Virus record (IMG/VR): IMGVR_UViG_646311924_000020
DNA from: a virus
Taxonomy: Duplodnaviria; Heunggongvirae; Uroviricota; Caudoviricetes
Direction: 5' to 3' (one strand)
Length of the DNA: 43,730 bases
Made by a program: the position numbers and the translations under genes
Part shown: positions 22,395-28,612 of the stretch, one piece after another
Position numbering within the stretch: the first letter of the stretch is position 1
Layout: every line of letters starts with the position of its first letter
The notes under the pieces: model-generated
What the model was told of the DNA's origin: nothing
What the model saw: only the letters and a program-made list of their open reading frames with translations
Database searches by the model: none

Positions 22395-23810
22395 TCAACC
22401 TACACCACAAGGAATTGAGTAACTGGAATAGTCGGGTTGCGCAGCCGACTCCGGGCAATGCATACACATCATCAGCGCATCAGCCAGGTTAGGAGATGGA
22501 ATACCGAGCTTCTGCTTCATTTCGACCTTAGTCATTAGCTCAAGCTTCCCGTTGTTATTGAATTTGCGCTGAATCTGCGTCAGTTCTGCAAACAGCTTCT
22601 CCAGCATCTTCTCGCCTATCGCTTCTTTGTCGAAACTCAGCATGTCGTCGGGGTCTGCATACTCACCGTGAACAACCGCCCGATATGTCAGATACAGCCT
22701 ATCAGCCAGTGCGTAATAGAATTGCGCTCGCTTATTGCGGAAAACATCGCCAATAGTGCGAACGTTGTCACCCTGTACGACTTCATCAGCCCATGCTCCG
22801 GCCTGATACGGCGCGTCTTCATCGAATGGCGATTCGCTGCCCTTGAACATCGTGGCGGTGATTTTCTTGCCGGAGAACGCTTCCGTTGTCTGTCTGCGTA
22901 GCCCTGCACCGACACCATCGCCATCCCACAGGTAATGATCAGCGCCGTCTTCAATCGCCAGCGAAGTAGCCCAGTCAGCACCCTCGTTGATGTCCATCAG
23001 CAGACCTTCGGCAATGCGCTTAACCACCGAACCGTGACGCGATGCATAACCTTTAGCATCCGGTCCTGTATCTGACGGGTCATGCGCAGAGACAACAGCG
23101 CCTTTCGCCTTCCATCCGAGTTTCTTGTGCGCATCGGTTGCGGCTTCAAGCCATTCACGTTTGATGATTGCCATATCACTTGCGCTTACTGGCTCACCAA
23201 GCCAGATGTGACGATACAGTGTCGGATTTCTGCGTTTGCACTCTTCCATCTCCAGACGGAGAACTTCAGGAAAGTGCGGGTTGTCGGTGTAGTTCACCGT
23301 CAGCAGGCAAATATCATCGGGAGGATTTACAACGAATCGCTGATAGGTATCGTCGAGGATGTTTTTCGGGTTAAAGCTCACCCATATTTCAGAGAACGGC
23401 TTACGGATGGTCGGTATCAGGATATCCCATGATTCCTTCGTTACCGCTTCCGCTTCTTCCACCCAGCAGATATCAATACCTTCGAGCGATTTAATCTTCG
23501 TCGGGTTGTTTTTTATGCCGTAGAACATGAATTCAGCATTCGTTCCGAGATGACGAATCATTGAACGCTGAATTTCAAACTCAGCCGAATACCCTTCCCG
23601 CTCTATGGTGTCTTCAAGCAACCGGATTACCGAATCACTGATACTGTTTTGCAGTTCACGAGCACAGAGGATGCGCACCGGCTGCCGACGCGCCGCTTCA
23701 ACAAGCAGCCTCGCGATTGCCCATGACTTACCGCTACCTCGACCGCCTTTGGCGACTTTGTAGCGATGCGCCTCAATGAACGGTTCAAAGATAGGATTAA
23801 TCGAGGTCAT
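22395..23810 (-). CDS. terminase large subunit
   Basis: 471 aa with Walker A (VAKGGRGSGKSW) and nuclease-domain acidic residues; directly upstream of portal. Confidence 0.9.
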   Translation of the reverse strand: MTSINPIFEPFIEAHRYKVAKGGRGSGKSWAIARLLVEAARRQPVRILCARELQNSISDSVIRLLEDTIEREGYSAEFEIQRSMIRHLGTNAEFMFYGIKNNPTKIKSLEGIDICWVEEAEAVTKESWDILIPTIRKPFSEIWVSFNPKNILDDTYQRFVVNPPDDICLLTVNYTDNPHFPEVLRLEMEECKRRNPTLYRHIWLGEPVSASDMAIIKREWLEAATDAHKKLGWKAKGAVVSAHDPSDTGPDAKGYASRHGSVVKRIAEGLLMDINEGADWATSLAIEDGADHYLWDGDGVGAGLRRQTTEAFSGKKITATMFKGSESPFDEDAPYQAGAWADEVVQGDNVRTIGDVFRNKRAQFYYALADRLYLTYRAVVHGEYADPDDMLSFDKEAIGEKMLEKLFAELTQIQRKFNNNGKLELMTKVEMKQKLGIPSPNLADALMMCMHCPESAAQPDYSSYSIPCGVG

Positions 23811-24229
23811 TTTCCGAATAGAGTGCTCATCGGTGATGTTTCAATCTGAATTGCGCCGCCGTCCTTACCGACAAGCTCGTTAGTTACCTTGTCGCCATAC
23901 TTACGGGGATTCATTCGGGCCAGCGCCCATTTGCGGGTATCAACGCGAAGTCTTGCCTTTGCCACCTCAGCAGCATCTGGAATCGCATTGTCAGCAATTT
24001 CGAATATCTCTTCGAAAATAGAATCAGCTCGTGCCTCAGTTGCCTTCGCGTACTTGTCGCGAAAATCCTCATGCTTTGCCAACCAGCGGAAAACAGTGGA
24101 CTTATCCGGCATACCAGGACGCTTACATACTTTCAGCAAACTTTCGCCAGAAGAAAGCAACGAGCAGATATCGTCAGCCACCTCCGGCATATAATCAGAG
24201 GGGCGACCAGCTTTTGGTTCAGTCGCCAT
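23807..24229 (-). CDS. terminase small subunit
   Basis: About 140 aa (MATEPKAGRPSDYMPEVADDICSLLSSGESLLKVCKRPGMPDKSTVFRWLAKHEDF...), HTH-containing, directly upstream of large terminase; resembles Sf6-type small terminase as recalled. Confidence 0.8.
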   Translation of the reverse strand: MATEPKAGRPSDYMPEVADDICSLLSSGESLLKVCKRPGMPDKSTVFRWLAKHEDFRDKYAKATEARADSIFEEIFEIADNAIPDAAEVAKARLRVDTRKWALARMNPRKYGDKVTNELVGKDGGAIQIETSPMSTLFGK

Positions 24230-24252
24230 ATTCATCTCACTTAGTTGTTATT

Positions 24253-24431
24253 TCAGGCTGAGGACTCTTTCGCGCCTTCAATCAGTGACTGCTTCAGCAA
24301 TTCGAGTGTGCCAATCGCCTCGCATAAACTGATTTCACCATCGTAATCATGGATGACGCTTTCCAGCCTCTCGTATAGCTCTTGAGTAATTGGGAATTTC
24401 TTCTCCTTACCAAGATCAACGACGCTTGTCA
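24253..24431 (-). CDS. hypothetical protein (59 aa)
   Basis: Small ORF MTSVVDLGKEKKFPITQELYERLESVIHDYDGEISLCEAIGTLELLKQSLIEGAKESSA in the operon strand; below the ORF-track cutoff. Confidence 0.35.
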
Positions 24432-24441
24432 TAGAGGATTC

Positions 24442-24729
24442 CTATAATTTTGAATATCCAGACTCAAATACCTCAGCAGGAGAATATGATTCATATCCAT
24501 CCTCATAGACAACGTAATAGCCTCCAGACATTGGTCGGTGCTTACAGATATATTCCGCGCTAACATCAAATGCTGCGTATTTCTTATCATCCGGATGAAT
24601 AATTGCCCCATAACTAGAAGAGCCAGACTTACCAGGCTGATCTGGGTTTGGCTTATGTTCTATAGAGCCAATCTTCAGGGCGCGAACTTTTTTGTGGCAC
24701 TGGTATCTCGGCATTTCTTGTTCAGTCAT
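24442..24729 (-). CDS. hypothetical protein (95 aa)
   Basis: Operon-strand ORF between Rha and terminase genes; no family recognised. Confidence 0.5.
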   Translation of the reverse strand: MTEQEMPRYQCHKKVRALKIGSIEHKPNPDQPGKSGSSSYGAIIHPDDKKYAAFDVSAEYICKHRPMSGGYYVVYEDGYESYSPAEVFESGYSKL

Positions 24730-24732
24730 CTC

Positions 24733-24975
24733 TTACACTCCGGTAGTGAACAGGTCTAACGCTTCCTTCGATTTACGCACCGCTTCGATAGTGCGGGTCG
24801 TGATATCTGAATTAGCGCCACCTGACTGGAAGTGAATTTTGAATAGCTCAAGCTTCAGTTCGTCAGTGCCAATGAATTGAAATGCTTCTTCTGCGGCTGC
24901 GTTCTGGTTCATGACCAGTTTGTAAATCTCTAACTGGAATTTCTGTTCTTCAGTCATGGGAATAATCTCTGCCAT
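24733..24975 (-). CDS. hypothetical protein (80 aa)
   Basis: Operon-strand ORF with 3 nt spacing to the next gene. Confidence 0.5.
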   Translation of the reverse strand: MAEIIPMTEEQKFQLEIYKLVMNQNAAAEEAFQFIGTDELKLELFKIHFQSGGANSDITTRTIEAVRKSKEALDLFTTGV

Positions 24976-25078
24976 TGTTGGCTCCGTTTATCCGTTAAAA
25001 GGGATATCAGTTAAGTTATCCCGTGTAGGGTATAAGCCATTGTCAAAGCCACTCTGTAGGGAATGGCTTTTGTAATAA

Positions 25079-25459
25079 CTACTGTTCGCTTAGCTTCTGC
25101 TTCAGCAAGTAACCTTCGAGCATCCAGATTTTGTTTACAGCATTCTGCCGAGCAATCTTCCGACCAATTTCTGCATCAAAGTTTCCCTGGCTTGCACAGG
25201 CACTCTCTCCGGTGACGGTGAAGCCATTCTTCAGCACCAGTACGCAGAAAGTGAGCAACTTCAATGGTGATAAATCACGATCGCCTTCCTCTGGTTTTTC
25301 CCTGCCACAATATTCGTTGCTGGAAATGGCACCATTTCGTCCATCATAAGCAGTAAAGTAATGCTCGCTTTTAATCACGTCTTCGATGTGCTGCGGGGTG
25401 ATTCGCGGTTCCGTTTTGCCTTTCTCAACGATTTCTTTTTCGATTTGCTGGTCGTTCAT
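25079..25459 (-). CDS. hypothetical protein (126 aa)
   Basis: Operon-strand ORF MNDQQIEKEIVEKGKTEPRITPQHIEDVIKSEHYFTAYDG...; no family confidently recognised. Confidence 0.5.
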   Translation of the reverse strand: MNDQQIEKEIVEKGKTEPRITPQHIEDVIKSEHYFTAYDGRNGAISSNEYCGREKPEEGDRDLSPLKLLTFCVLVLKNGFTVTGESACASQGNFDAEIGRKIARQNAVNKIWMLEGYLLKQKLSEQ

Positions 25460-25690
25460 AATTATGACCCTGTGGAGTGGTTGCTTGATTAGGATGTCTT
25501 TCCATCAGTCCGCCACCACAAAGAATCTTTTTTGCCATAAGGCAGGAGGTTCATCTTTCAGTGGCTGCCAGTGTTATTTCCCCACTTACTGGCTTGGGTT
25601 GTTTCGCTGTACTGCCGTTAATTAGTGACCAGAAATTAACTCCGGTTTCATTATCAAGCCCACCCGTAGATAGGCTTTGTAATGACATCT

Positions 25691-26173
25691 TCAATTAATC
25701 AGCAGTTCAGGCTGTGTCACCTGCAAGATGTATTCATGCTCGACAGCCAGGACGCGCTTCTCTTTCTTCCGTTCGTTCATTAACCGACTGCCGATCGTAC
25801 CTTTCAGCTTTGAGCGTGTTTCTTTGATGGCGTAGCGGTGCTGCATTTCTTCGCCAATTGCCATGCGGCGGCTCAGTTGCTCTGCCATCCAGTTGAATGC
25901 TGCGATATAGCTCTCCTTGATTGCCGCAGCAGCTTTCCCGGTGAACCCCATCACAACCATGATCCAGCCATCTTTCGTCAGGCTGTACATCGGGCGAACC
26001 TTGCCCTGCTCATCGATATAATCAGCCGACGCAAAATTGCGTTGGCTAAACTCACGTGAGCAATCAGCCTTAACCTGCTCGATTTTCCTGAGAACATCAC
26101 CGTGTCGCTTGCCGAAGTACTTGGCAATTTTTCTGGATGTGGTAACGACCTCTCCGTTTTTGGCTTGCACCAT
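25691..26173 (-). CDS. rha: Rha-family phage regulatory protein
   Basis: 160 aa; N-terminal SRKIAKYFGKRHGDVLRKIEQ... pattern typical of the Rha domain; located between lysis and packaging genes. Confidence 0.7.
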   Translation of the reverse strand: MVQAKNGEVVTTSRKIAKYFGKRHGDVLRKIEQVKADCSREFSQRNFASADYIDEQGKVRPMYSLTKDGWIMVVMGFTGKAAAAIKESYIAAFNWMAEQLSRRMAIGEEMQHRYAIKETRSKLKGTIGSRLMNERKKEKRVLAVEHEYILQVTQPELLIN

Positions 26174-26357
26174 TCTCGGAAGTCGAAGGCTGGAATAACT
26201 GAATGATTATTCATAGCGTCTTTACCTTTTAGAAAGTGAGCCTGTCTCACAGAAAAGCCGCCCGAGAGAGGTCGCCACCTATAACGGCATTTCTCAGGCT
26301 CGCTTACTGAAAGGCTCTCGTTAATATGCGCGTGAGATGCGCGTTTACTGCGGACAT

Positions 26358-26382
26358 AAAAAAGCCCCGCTTTTCGCGAGGC
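26358..26382 (-). terminator. intrinsic terminator downstream of Rz
   Basis: Minus-strand hairpin GCCUCGC-GAAAA-GCGGGGC (one U-G pair) followed by UUUUUU. Confidence 0.5.
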
Positions 26383-26414
26383 TCATTAAATGGACTTTGT
26401 GGTTTGCAAAAAAA

Positions 26415-26852
26415 TTATTTCAGGCACTGAGTCCTGATGTACTCCTGCAGGTAGTTAACCTGCGCGGTTATCCTGTCGATTCCACTTCGGAGACGGTAAT
26501 AATTGAGTTCAGCATCTGCTGTAAGTCTTGGGCTTTCTCCATCGCCCATGCTGCTGGCTCCGGTCGTTGACTTTGCACAGGTGGCGGCGACTTGCAGGCG
26601 CTTACGACCAGCAGAAACATCAGCACGGAGACTTTCGATAGTCGCGTTAGCATCAGCAAGCTCCTTTGTGTATCTGGCGTCGAGTTCTGCTACATCACGT
26701 TGACGCTTCTGCATATCAGCGATGATGGATGTGGCTTTATCGCGCTGCTCTTTGTAGGTCATGGCGTTATCACGGTAATGATTAACAGCCCATGACAGGC
26801 AGACGATGATGCAGATAACCAGAGCGGAGATAATCGCGGTTACTCTGCTCAT
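26415..26852 (-). CDS. Rz: spanin, inner-membrane subunit Rz
   Basis: 145 aa, N-terminal transmembrane segment then coiled-coil; follows endolysin with ATGA overlap. Confidence 0.85.
26468..26659 (-). CDS. Rz1: spanin, outer-membrane lipoprotein Rz1 (embedded in Rz, +1 frame)
   Basis: 63 aa with lipobox LVVSAC and Pro-rich mature part, entirely within Rz in another frame. Confidence 0.6.
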
Positions 26853-27325
26853 ACCTCAATCTCTCTGACCGTTCCGCCTGCTTCTTTGAATTTTGCAATC
26901 AGGTTGTCAGCCTTATGCTCGAACTGACCATAACCAGCGCCCGGCAGTGAAGCCCAGATATTGCTGCAACGGTCAATTGCCTGACGAATATCACCGCGAT
27001 CAATCATCGGTAAAGCGCCACGCTCCTTAATCTGCTGCAGCGCAACAGCGTCCTGGCTTTTTGGAGAGAAGTCTTTCAGGCCAAGCTGATTACGGTAGAC
27101 ATCCCACCAACGGGAAAGAAGCTGGTAACGTCCAGCGGCTGTTGATTTGAGTTTTGGGTTTAGCGTGACCAGTTTGCGAGGGTGATCGGAGTAATCGGTA
27201 AATAGCTCTCCGCCTACAATGACGTCATAACCATGATTTCTGGTTTTCTGACGTCCGTTATCAGTTCCCTCCGACCACGCCAGCATATCGAGGAACGCCT
27301 TACGTTGATTATTGATTTCCACCAT
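26849..27325 (-). CDS. R: endolysin, lambda R-type lytic transglycosylase
   Basis: 158 aa [51 protein letters not shown]..., nearly identical to recalled lambda R. Confidence 0.95.
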
Positions 27326-27632
27326 CTTCTACTCCGGCTTTTTTAGCAGCGAAGCGTTTGATAAGCGAACCAATCGAGTCAGTACCGATGTAGCCGATGA
27401 ACACGCTCGTTATATAAGCGAGATTGCTACTTAGTCCGGCGAAGTCGAGAAGGTCACGAATGAACCAGGCGATAATGGCGCACATCGTTGCGTCGATTAC
27501 TGTTTTTGTAAACGCACCGCCATTATATCTGCCGCGAAGGTACGCCATTGCAAACGCAAGGATTGCCCCGATGCCTTGTTCCTTTGCCGCGAGAATGGCG
27601 GCTAACAGGTCATGTTTTTCTGGCATCTTCAT
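27309..27632 (-). CDS. S: holin, lambda S-type (dual-start S107/S105)
   Basis: 107 aa [64 protein letters not shown]..., nearly identical to recalled lambda S. Confidence 0.95.
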
Positions 27633-27752
27633 GTCTTACCCCCAATAAGGGGATTTGCTCTATTTAATTAGGAATAAGGTCGATTACTGATAGAACAAAT
27701 CCAGGCTACTGTGTTTAGTAATCAGATTTGTTCGTGACCGATATGCACGGGC

Positions 27753-27787
27753 AAAACGGCAGGAGGTTGTTAGCGCAGCCTCCTGCC
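27753..27787 (-). terminator. candidate terminator between tRNAs and holin gene (tR'-like)
   Basis: Minus-strand hairpin with 9 bp stem (GGCAGGAGG/CCUCCUGCC, 12 nt loop) followed by GUUUUGCC; the U-run is short. Confidence 0.4.
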
Positions 27788-27874
27788 ACCCGCTTTCACG
27801 AAGATCATGTGTAGAAGGCCGCAGCGTAACTATCACTGATGAGTTCAGGATAGCCAGTGGCTACGGCTCAGTTA

Positions 27875-27950
27875 TGGTGCTGGTTAACGGACTTGAACCG
27901 CTACCCATTCGCTTACAAGGCGACTGCTCTACCATTGGAGCTAAACCAGC
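27875..27950 (-). tRNA. tRNA-Thr (anticodon UGU)
   Basis: 76 nt cloverleaf folded by hand: acceptor GCTGGTT/AACCAGC, D-arm GCTC/GAGC, anticodon loop CTTGTAA, T-arm with TTCAAGT loop, discriminator A, encoded CCA. Confidence 0.75.
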
Positions 27951-27955
27951 ATATT

Positions 27956-28030
27956 TGGCGGGACAGCGTGGACTCGAACCACGATAAGAAGGTTAACAGC
28001 CTTCCGTAATGACCTTTATACGACTGACCC
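27956..28030 (-). tRNA. tRNA-Asn-like (anticodon GUU), non-canonical, possibly pseudo-tRNA
   Basis: 75 nt: anticodon stem GAAGG/CCTTC with loop CTGTTAA, T-arm CGTGG-TTCGAGT-CCACG, encoded CCA; but acceptor stem has a T-T mismatch and the D-stem is only 3 bp. Confidence 0.55.
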
Positions 28031-28093
28031 AAATAAAAAAAGCCACCGTTGCAACTTAAGAGTCACTAACGGCAGCTTACCTTCTAATTATGG

Positions 28094-28612
28094 CTAAATG
28101 GATAATTGCATGTCAAGGCTTTTAACAGCAACATGCTTAACTTTCTCAACACGTTTACGCATTTTGAAAGCATTTTGCATTGGCTGGTACAAAACAAATA
28201 ACGACGCTTTCAGGATGTCGTCAATTTCGTTTCTACAGGTTGCCATTGAAGGTTTTCTCCATCCCTCGCCACTACGCCCACACATCTTGCGTGGCTTTGC
28301 AGTCGCGTGATAGTAGGATGCAATTGCTCGCTTAGATGAACCATGAGCGTAGTAGCTGAGGAGGATGCCAAAGGCTCTCTTGTCAATGTACATGACGGAA
28401 TCGACGACCTGAGAAATCAACATTCCATCATCATCATTACACATTGGCCTTGTCATAACTCTTCCCGGCTCTACGCTCTCCATGAACTTCGCTATTACGC
28501 TGCTCATACGCTTTTCCAGACGACCTGAATAAACCCATGCGCCCCACAGTTCAAGCCAGCCATTCAGCCACTCATGCTGTTCTTTGGTGAGGTTTAGTTC
28601 TCTTATGCCCAC
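28094..28612 (-). CDS. Q: late-gene antiterminator Q (Phage_antitermQ family)
   Basis: 172 aa with [21 protein letters not shown] and ILLSYY blocks resembling the recalled QuuD/Q21-type proteins; sits between the phosphatase gene and the lysis cassette. Confidence 0.7.

Follow-up and report, generated by a model that had tools for sequence, protein, structure and literature searches.

An Acb4-family gene and a candidate counter-defence gene between the lysis and terminase genes of an Sf6-like prophage

Which of the small genes that separate the lysis genes of a lambdoid prophage from its terminase genes belong to the phage backbone, and which are cargo that may act against host defence? The question is raised here by a P22/Sf6-like (Sf6/HK620-type) prophage on the IMG/VR virus record IMGVR_UViG_646311924_000020 (Caudoviricetes), whose whole stretch of 43,730 nucleotides (nt) is referred to as the window. 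A first-pass annotation, made from the letters of the window, had described four small open reading frames (ORFs) of 59, 95, 80 and 126 amino acids (aa) at 24253-25459, between a gene of the Rha family and the terminase genes. ORF listing returned four minus-strand frames with exactly these limits, named here genes A (126 aa), B (80 aa), C (95 aa) and D (59 aa) in their order along that strand. Since each of them has a PHROG family match at E ≤ 1e-41, they are real genes rather than chance frames.

The best explanation, to which a probability of about 0.6 is given as a whole, is that the interval is a mosaic accessory region, flanked on one side by the lysis genes and Rha and on the other by the terminase genes, and transcribed along with the late operon. 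Genes B and D would form its backbone, gene A would be cargo of the Acb4 family of signal sponges, and gene C would be counter-defence cargo. Presence and absence were counted in 83 related loci sharing the terminase. Gene B was found in 79 of these loci and gene D in 52, gene A in 22 and gene C in 16. Both A and C are missing from most of the related phages whose terminases are 99-100% identical. The four are thus not a uniformly conserved set of core structural or packaging genes, since A and C vary from locus to locus. The expectation that this interval carries cargo was therefore borne out for genes A and C, which are variable, and did not hold for genes B and D, which are backbone genes.

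Gene A and the Acb4 family of signal sponges

Gene A (25459..25079, minus strand) matches the Pfam family PF13876 (Phage_gp49_66) with 117.5 bits against a cut-off of 27, its residues 20-123 covering profile positions 1-82 of 82. It is identical to Sf6 gp66 at 122 of 126 residues (97%), and the Sf6 protein is one of the two that name the Pfam family. Sf6 gp66 (Q716B1) is also an entry in the supplementary table of Acb4 homologues (Table S3, n=1,331) of Chang et al. (bioRxiv 10.1101/2024.12.30.630793). Judged by these matches, gene A is an Acb4-family protein and the orthologue of Sf6 gp66.

In the account given by that preprint, PF13876 is the Acb4 family, and the Acb4 protein of phage SPO1 is a tetrameric sponge for 3'3'-cyclic GMP-AMP (3'3'-cGAMP) and related signals of the cyclic oligonucleotide-based antiphage signalling system (CBASS). 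The family is characterised by a dsRBD-like core of the order alpha-beta-beta-beta-alpha, from which the homotetramer is built. All eight purified homologues described there bound 3'3'-cGAMP, and additional binding of cyclic di-AMP (c-di-AMP) was confined to those whose phages infect Gram-negative hosts (Chang et al., bioRxiv 10.1101/2024.12.30.630793). The main text of the preprint makes no mention of Shigella, Salmonella or 'Escherichia phage'. By homology to its family, gene A most likely soaks up cyclic-dinucleotide CBASS signals. Its product would assemble as a tetramer and would sequester 3'3'-cGAMP and, in Gram-negative hosts, also 3'3'-c-di-AMP. As these signals are made by CBASS, their sequestration by gene A would keep the CBASS effector from activation.

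The family assignment also clarifies an idea of the first-pass annotation, which had found no assignable family for any of the four proteins and had considered a DUF2829-like anti-defence role for the 126-aa one. The kind of function now appears well guessed, and the family was not the right one. The DUF2829 profile (PF11195), which describes Tad2, gave no match to any of the four proteins even at E ≤ 1, and a Tad2 assignment for the 126-aa protein was rejected; PF13876 is a different sponge fold. Tad2 is itself a small phage signal sponge, and it occurs in fusions with Acb4 as well as with the domain represented by gene C. The lack of an assignable family was likewise correct only in part: genes A and B fall into Pfam families, while genes C and D remain without a family in Pfam, NCBIfam and PADLOC.

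A direct phmmer comparison of gene A with SPO1 Acb4 (PDB 9e4w) gives a weak alignment (E 0.069), in which residues 69-111 fall onto chain positions 38-80 and which spans the beta-sheet and the helix of the NFxxEIGR motif. Within this weak alignment, the base-pocket residues, two Phe and one Ile, are conserved (F48 to F80, F62 to F94 and I66 to I98), and N63, a backbone contact in SPO1 Acb4, corresponds to D95. The contacts K36 and K81 lie outside the alignment or at its edge. Gene A keeps the NFxxEIGR motif and, in the weak alignment, the Phe/Phe/Ile set of the base pockets, and it scores far above the family threshold. The two differ in length, since the SPO1 protein has 96 aa and gene A 126 aa, and the extra length lies outside the direct alignment.

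Two groups of observations weigh against reading gene A as a fully active sponge. Four of the SPO1 contacts are changed in the same weak alignment (E49 to T81, V56 to C88, Y57 to A89 and T70 to I102), with loss of the guanine-specific Glu (E49, replaced by Thr) and of the Tyr and Thr that contact phosphate. The other concerns codons 91-92 (25184-25189), which encode Gln-Gly where Sf6 gp66 has Pro-Glu. SPO1 Acb4 and 90 of 93 close homologues have a Glu directly before the NFxxEIGR motif, a nearly invariant residue in whose place the allele in the window has Gly. This change from Glu to Gly falls in a ligand-pocket loop and could alter or weaken binding. The unconserved contacts and the Gln-Gly pair together make the ligand range of gene A, and even its activity, uncertain.

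Two alleles of gene A occur in the 22 positive loci, 97-100% and about 72% identical. An Acb4 gene resembling Sf6 gp66 is also present in phage Huey (locus L003, 1726-2106), where it bears the label 'anti-CRISPR protein', which looks unsafe.

Gene C, its fusions to known sponges and its kinship to Dec

The 126-aa protein had been put forward as the best subject for follow-up. It is a sound anti-defence candidate as an Acb4-family member, and the best candidate for further work is rather the 95-aa product of gene C (24729..24442, minus strand; phrog_11049), which represents an OB-fold (oligonucleotide/oligosaccharide-binding fold) family without a name. Gene C is cargo and forms a clean 299-bp insertion between genes B and D, since the distance from the start of B to the start of D is 244 nt in loci without it and 543 nt in loci with it. 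It was found in 49 of 5426 complete Escherichia coli genomes and in 14 of 50,697 phage records; phage CurroJimenez_Bas106 is one of its carriers. Scans of Pfam, NCBIfam and PADLOC gave no match, and a literature search, with the primary Tad3-6 paper outside its scope, turned up no named or discussed family corresponding to it.

The family to which gene C belongs is nevertheless very large: with a threshold of E ≤ 0.001, an exhaustive profile search collected 5036 representative clusters. Both ends of the homologues are strongly conserved (N-terminal MPRYQCHKKVWALKI and C-terminal GGYYVVYEDGYKSYSPAxAFExGY) and enclose a variable middle, and most homologues are stand-alone proteins of about 95 aa. 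They are encoded by phages and prophages, and a genome scan located the family in Gamma-, Beta- and Alphaproteobacteria, Acidobacteria, Planctomycetota, Verrucomicrobia, Bacteroidetes and candidate phyla. Identity across phyla ranges from 36 to 72%, mostly 40-55%. Conservation of this kind would be easier to explain by a universal small-molecule ligand than by a partner such as a host protein or a capsid. The net charge of the gene C protein itself is about -1.

Homologues of gene C occupy the same slot between lysis and terminase genes in prophages with unrelated head modules, and other settings are also represented. One of them, in a Morganella prophage, adjoins HK97-type terminase, HNH and portal genes; another lies among the replication genes of the 70-kb Salmonella phage UALMA_PCSE1, and a third among early-type small genes of the 93-kb Pseudomonas phage Dolphis. 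In Dolphis (locus L084, 4989-5483) these neighbours are small genes without an assigned function, and in Ralstonia phage AhaGv (locus L085, 5001-5276) the C-family gene adjoins helicase, polymerase and exonuclease genes. Public records label some C-family genes 'head-tail adaptor' or 'capsid decoration protein', and both labels look unsafe.

The evidence that bears most directly on function comes from domain fusions. A fusion census was based on the best 150 of the 5036 C-family representatives, of which 73 are at least 140 aa long, and these were scanned with Pfam. A known sponge domain was present in 18 of the 73 long members, and four sponge families were the top partners: Sequestin (PF21825) in 8 proteins, Acb4 (PF13876) in 4, the Tad2-like domain (PF11195) in 3 and the Acb2/Tad1 hairpin (PF24729) in 3. 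Wherever the sponge domain could be placed, by eye or by Pfam coordinates, it followed an N-terminal C domain. With 45-66% identity to the gene C protein, the C domains in these fusions belong to the same family and not to a remote superfamily. An independent IMG/VR sample gave a similar picture, with a sponge domain above the Pfam cut-off in 5 of 10 long C-family ORFs (Acb4 1, Tad2 2, Acb2/Tad1 2). Proteins in the published tables of Acb4 and Sequestin homologues also carry a C-type N-terminal domain (hhalign probabilities of 96% and 97.5%), which is not singled out in the text of the Sequestin paper or in the family section of the Acb4 paper.

This pattern recalls the way in which Sequestin itself was discovered. 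Fusions with Tad2 and Acb4 led to it, in a search confined to Pfam families, and in the fusions solved so far both partners are sponges (Tal et al., bioRxiv 10.1101/2025.07.12.664507). The same authors describe the traits of a sponge as a short phage protein without assigned function, fusions to other sponges, a homo-oligomer with positive pockets at its interfaces, and the ability to bind an immune signal, to release it intact and to rescue phage from a signalling defence. Gene C shows two of these traits, being a short phage-encoded protein with recurrent fusion to known sponge families, and natural tandem C-C proteins (P0242 and P0355) hint at self-association. Sequestin, a Thoeris sponge, resembles gene C in being short, mostly stand-alone and recurrently fused to known sponges, and it is also the most frequent fusion partner of the C domain. 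The two differ in structure, since Sequestin is an all-helical dimer whereas gene C is predicted to be a beta-rich OB-fold.

Counter-defence is proposed for gene C because its domain shows this Sequestin-type fusion pattern. An anti-defence role of some kind is given slightly better than even odds. As a stand-alone copy of a widespread OB-fold domain, gene C would act as a counter-defence protein, and its most likely mode of action would be to bind a nucleotide immune signal not covered by its fusion partners. That it is a sponge for such a signal is a tentative proposal, favoured less than its negation. Held with the same reserve is a broader view of the family, in which its members would be phylum-spanning OB-fold sponges or direct inhibitors of nucleotide immune signalling, directed at a signal outside the range of Acb2, Acb4, Tad1/2 and Sequestin, and the capsid protein Dec would be a derived offshoot with a trimer spike and a capsid-binding surface as later gains.

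Several findings weigh against a counter-defence role and must be set beside the fusions. Most of the conserved residues of gene C are also kept in Dec, and may belong to the core of the fold rather than to ligand contacts; C11, H12, K13, K19 and H64 are conserved residues specific to gene C. In a census of 44 diverse stand-alone C loci, a single Acb4 gene was present among 144 neighbours and sponges were not enriched; the contexts were mixed and included small terminases, DUF2560, single-stranded DNA-binding protein, replication O protein, the one Acb4 and one Lar. The argument for gene C therefore rests on fusions and not on gene neighbourhood. In about two thirds of the extended C proteins, no domain is recognisable in the extension. 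PADLOC, as mentioned, returned no match for gene C, and the known sponge structures were absent from both PDB fold searches.

The predicted structure places gene C near a protein of another function. The AlphaFold2 (AF2) model has a model confidence score (pLDDT) of 80 and the OB-fold topology b0-b1-b2-b3-aOB-b4-b5-a2, with a poorly predicted and highly variable loop at residues 26-40. In PDB fold searches and hhalign comparisons, Dec of phage L (PDB 6e3c) was the only close structural and profile relative; no Tad3-6 structure was present among the fold-search matches. A PDB sequence search with the single gene C sequence gave chance-level matches, and the profile reached Dec only at E 0.89, a value that has meaning only after the fold search. 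With hhalign, the match has a probability of 87.8% and covers Dec 10-90, which is the whole globular domain, at an identity of 23-29% depending on the method. The topology of Dec, including a non-canonical b0 strand and a C-terminal helix (Newcomer et al., eLife 2019, PMC6449081), is identical to that of the gene C model. Dec also occupies the slot of gene C upstream of the small terminase gene (terS), as ST64T (locus L087, dec 2878-3282) and epsilon34 (locus L088, dec 2378-2782) both have the order hkbM - orf129 - dec - terS. The predicted OB-fold of gene C is homologous to the globular domain of Dec, because the profile match, the hhalign result, the topology and the genomic slot all agree.

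The distribution of the two suggests a direction for this relationship. Dec is represented by 65 records, all from Salmonella P22-like phages, whereas the C family has more than 5000 clusters and spans phyla, head types and sponge fusions. For this reason Dec is probably a lineage-specific derivative, which would most likely have arisen from a C-type gene by adding a trimeric spike. A further branch of the superfamily may be visible in P0277, a protein of 195 aa with a second beta-rich domain (KFRKKPVVVEAMQ) behind its C domain. The sequence pattern of this second domain is like that of gene C and is common in small phage proteins, and the domain may be a more distant branch of the C superfamily.

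Backbone genes, layout and transcription of the interval

Genes B and D are not cargo and belong to the old backbone of P22-like phages. They correspond to P22 orf80 and orf59c, HK620 hkbM and hkbN, and Sf6 gp67 and gp68, which have the same position and are 84-100% identical; the interval in the window differs from these by the insertion of gene C. As to their role, the sole commitment made here is that they encode non-structural small proteins. A literature search on DUF2560 and on orf59c/hkbM/hkbN found nothing about either gene, and the Sequestin profile PF21825 matched neither of them at E ≤ 1.

Gene B (24975..24733, minus strand) matches PF10834 (DUF2560) with 147.7 bits against a cut-off of 25 and over the full profile (1-72). 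It is P22 orf80, HK620 hkbM, Sf6 gp67 and epsilon34 gp69, with 99-100% identity in these four phages. In the homologue search its family comprised 92 clusters, all from Enterobacteriaceae, and no domain fusions were seen. The protein is acidic, with an isoelectric point (pI) of 4.7, and its AF2 model consists of four helices (pLDDT 87.8). Foldseek found no structural neighbour of this model in the PDB (best E 2.6), and a PDB sequence search with the gene B profile gave chance-level matches only. The first 27-28 codons of the gene (24892-24975) are 93-100% identical in HK97, HK75, HK106, HK446, mEpX1 and their relatives; the rest of DUF2560 is not conserved in these phages, and many database entries for DUF2560 are truncated or chimeric. 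The retention of the first 27-28 codons alone, together with these truncated or chimeric entries, indicates a recombination junction inside gene B.

Gene D (24432..24253, minus strand) is P22 orf59c, HK620 hkbN and Sf6 gp68, with 84-92% identity in these phages, and it matches phrog_3546 at E 1e-41. Its product is also acidic (pI 4.5), and the gene lies directly upstream of the small terminase gene. It has no match in Pfam and no NCBIfam family, and a PDB sequence search gave chance-level matches only; one match to JetB at E 0.013 in the NCBIfam and PADLOC scans was taken as noise.

The interval is bounded upstream of gene A by Rha (26173..25691, minus strand; PF09669) and downstream of gene D by an Sf6-type small terminase gene, TerS (24235..23807, minus strand; PF20901). 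Beyond TerS follow the large terminase gene and then a P22-type portal gene, and upstream of the interval lie the holin, endolysin and Rz genes and the Rha-family gene. Two phage-borne tRNA genes, tRNA-Thr (TGT) and tRNA-Asn (GTT), are placed just upstream of the holin gene on the minus strand (27875-27950 and 27956-28030), and an Rfam scan of 23000-28500 returned these two tRNAs only, with no match inside the interval. A segment of 1245 bp that makes up the interval is 100% identical in chromosomes of E. coli O111:H8, O111:H2 and O111:NM, where RefSeq labels its genes 'Gp49 family protein', 'hypothetical' (twice) and 'DUF2560 family protein'.

The spacings are 231 nt between Rha and A, 103 between A and B, 3 between B and C, 9 between C and D, and 17 between D and TerS. 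As the four genes are also co-oriented with the lysis and head genes, the late-operon placement given by the first-pass annotation is plausible. A promoter scan of the minus strand from 23700 to 26500 detected no sigma-70-like site, and hence nothing indicates that either A or C is a moron with transcription of its own. A terminator-like element, consisting of a GC-rich hairpin and a T-run, directly follows Rz, ahead of Rha, at 26384..26362 (minus strand), which means that late transcription has to pass through it. This position is also where epsilon34 has an annotated rho-independent terminator. Because no promoter was found on the coding strand and the terminator-like hairpin follows Rz, the simplest reading is that genes A-D belong to the Q-dependent late transcript.

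The spacers on both sides of gene A are structured. The A-B spacer (24976..25078, minus strand) contains two stable hairpins, the second followed by UUUU, and has a fold energy of -29.2 kcal/mol, whereas its shuffles average -14.3 (z = -5.5) and 0 of 200 are as stable. These hairpins may be a putative terminator or attenuator that closes the Acb4 cassette. The spacer between Rha and gene A (25460-25690, minus strand; 231 nt) is also structured (z = -2.5), and it accompanies gene A in other phages, where BLAST matches start directly after the Rha stop codon. The structured spacers flanking gene A may be cassette boundaries or regulatory elements.

Rival readings and the meaning of the locus

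The kinship to Dec raises another reading of gene C, that of a Dec-like capsid decoration protein whose OB-fold would bind the outside of a mature Sf6-type capsid. Dec as the sole close relative, the presence of dec in the same slot in ST64T and epsilon34, and two public records that label C homologues 'capsid decoration protein' all speak for it. Dec, though, has both a trimer spike and capsid-contact residues, and gene C lacks the two. The protein ends four residues after helix a2, with no counterpart of the Dec spike (about residues 90-134), and the hhalign match stops at Dec 90; this three-stranded spike provides nearly all trimer contacts of Dec (Newcomer et al., eLife 2019, PMC6449081). 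The Dec capsid residues K30, Y31, Y49, Y71 and E73 correspond to E24, H25, D55, D77 and Y79 of gene C, in a remote alignment whose positions are uncertain. The Dec substitutions K30D and Y49E lowered capsid binding (Newcomer et al., eLife 2019, PMC6449081), and gene C is naturally acidic at these two positions (E24 and D55, in the same remote alignment). Furthermore, C homologues stand beside HK97-type terminase and portal genes and within replication or early blocks of lytic phages, and there is no obvious reason for a capsid binder to be fused to intracellular signal sponges. Decoration is therefore considered improbable. Less remote, and still unlikely, is an anti-defence role without sequestration, with gene C acting as a direct inhibitor of a defence protein or as an oligomerisation or stabilising module for the fused sponge. 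The fusions demonstrate an association with counter-defence and not a mechanism, and the variable loop 26-40 of gene C recalls Tad3-Tad6, which are described as inhibiting ThsB by direct binding through a protruding loop. On the other hand, the domain must be able to function by itself, as it forms a stand-alone protein of about 95 aa in most members; 36-72% identity across phyla is hard to square with a fast-evolving protein target; and in every fusion solved so far both partners are sponges.

Two other readings concern the interval as a whole or the junction of genes C and D. All four genes might be ordinary late-operon genes with packaging or regulatory roles tied to the terminase, and none of them cargo. 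The tight linkage of B and D upstream of terS in P22, Sf6 and HK620, despite differing TerS types, agrees with this, as does the failure to find a separate promoter. It is nonetheless a very improbable reading, given that A and C are absent from most relatives with nearly identical terminases, that D is missing from every one of the 83 loci with the 90% TerS allele, and that the family of gene A has demonstrated sponge activity. A last possibility is that amber read-through joins C and D into a single 158-aa product. The gene C stop codon, TAG at 24442..24444 (minus strand), is in frame with D and three codons upstream of its ATG (AAA TTA TAG GAA TCC TCT ATG), and five database clusters (P0001-P0005) do encode a 158-aa C-D fusion, with Gln (CAG) or Glu (GAG) in place of the stop. 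The occurrence of both residues at this codon implies that at least two independent stop-to-sense changes have been tolerated. The TAG is, however, kept in 16 of 16 related IMG/VR loci, on which ground a fusion as the normal product was rejected; 275 member sequences have the 95-aa form, compared with one for each fused form; gene D exists alone in P22, HK620 and Sf6; and an AGGA Shine-Dalgarno sequence that overlaps the TAG serves the ATG of D itself. A shared frame is expected by chance in one case out of three. Read-through is accordingly given almost no credence.

The mosaic accessory region, with gene A as Acb4-family cargo and gene C as counter-defence cargo on a B-D backbone, thus remains the preferred reading of the interval. 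The novelty of its parts differs. Gene A is a member of a known family, and genes B and D are long-known genes. If gene C acts as proposed, it would bring to a known functional class both a family and a fold that are new.

Phage sponges for second messengers constitute a young field with few families, in which every family added so far has revealed further signalling chemistry. Sequestin came to light only through its sponge fusions and an existing Pfam entry. The C domain bears the same fusion signature, with four sponge families, and was invisible to a search limited to Pfam because it has no Pfam model. If the proposal is true, gene C would add a fold to the sponge repertoire and might reveal the signal that it targets, and it would also give an evolutionary origin to the 'novel' OB-fold of Dec, which has thousands of relatives.

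There are also consequences for annotation. The 'Gp49 family protein' found in thousands of E. coli prophages should be described as Acb4-like, and the labels 'anti-CRISPR', 'head-tail adaptor' and 'capsid decoration protein' now attached to homologues of genes A and C look unsafe. For lambdoid prophages more generally, the slot between the lysis and terminase genes is a place to look for counter-defence genes.

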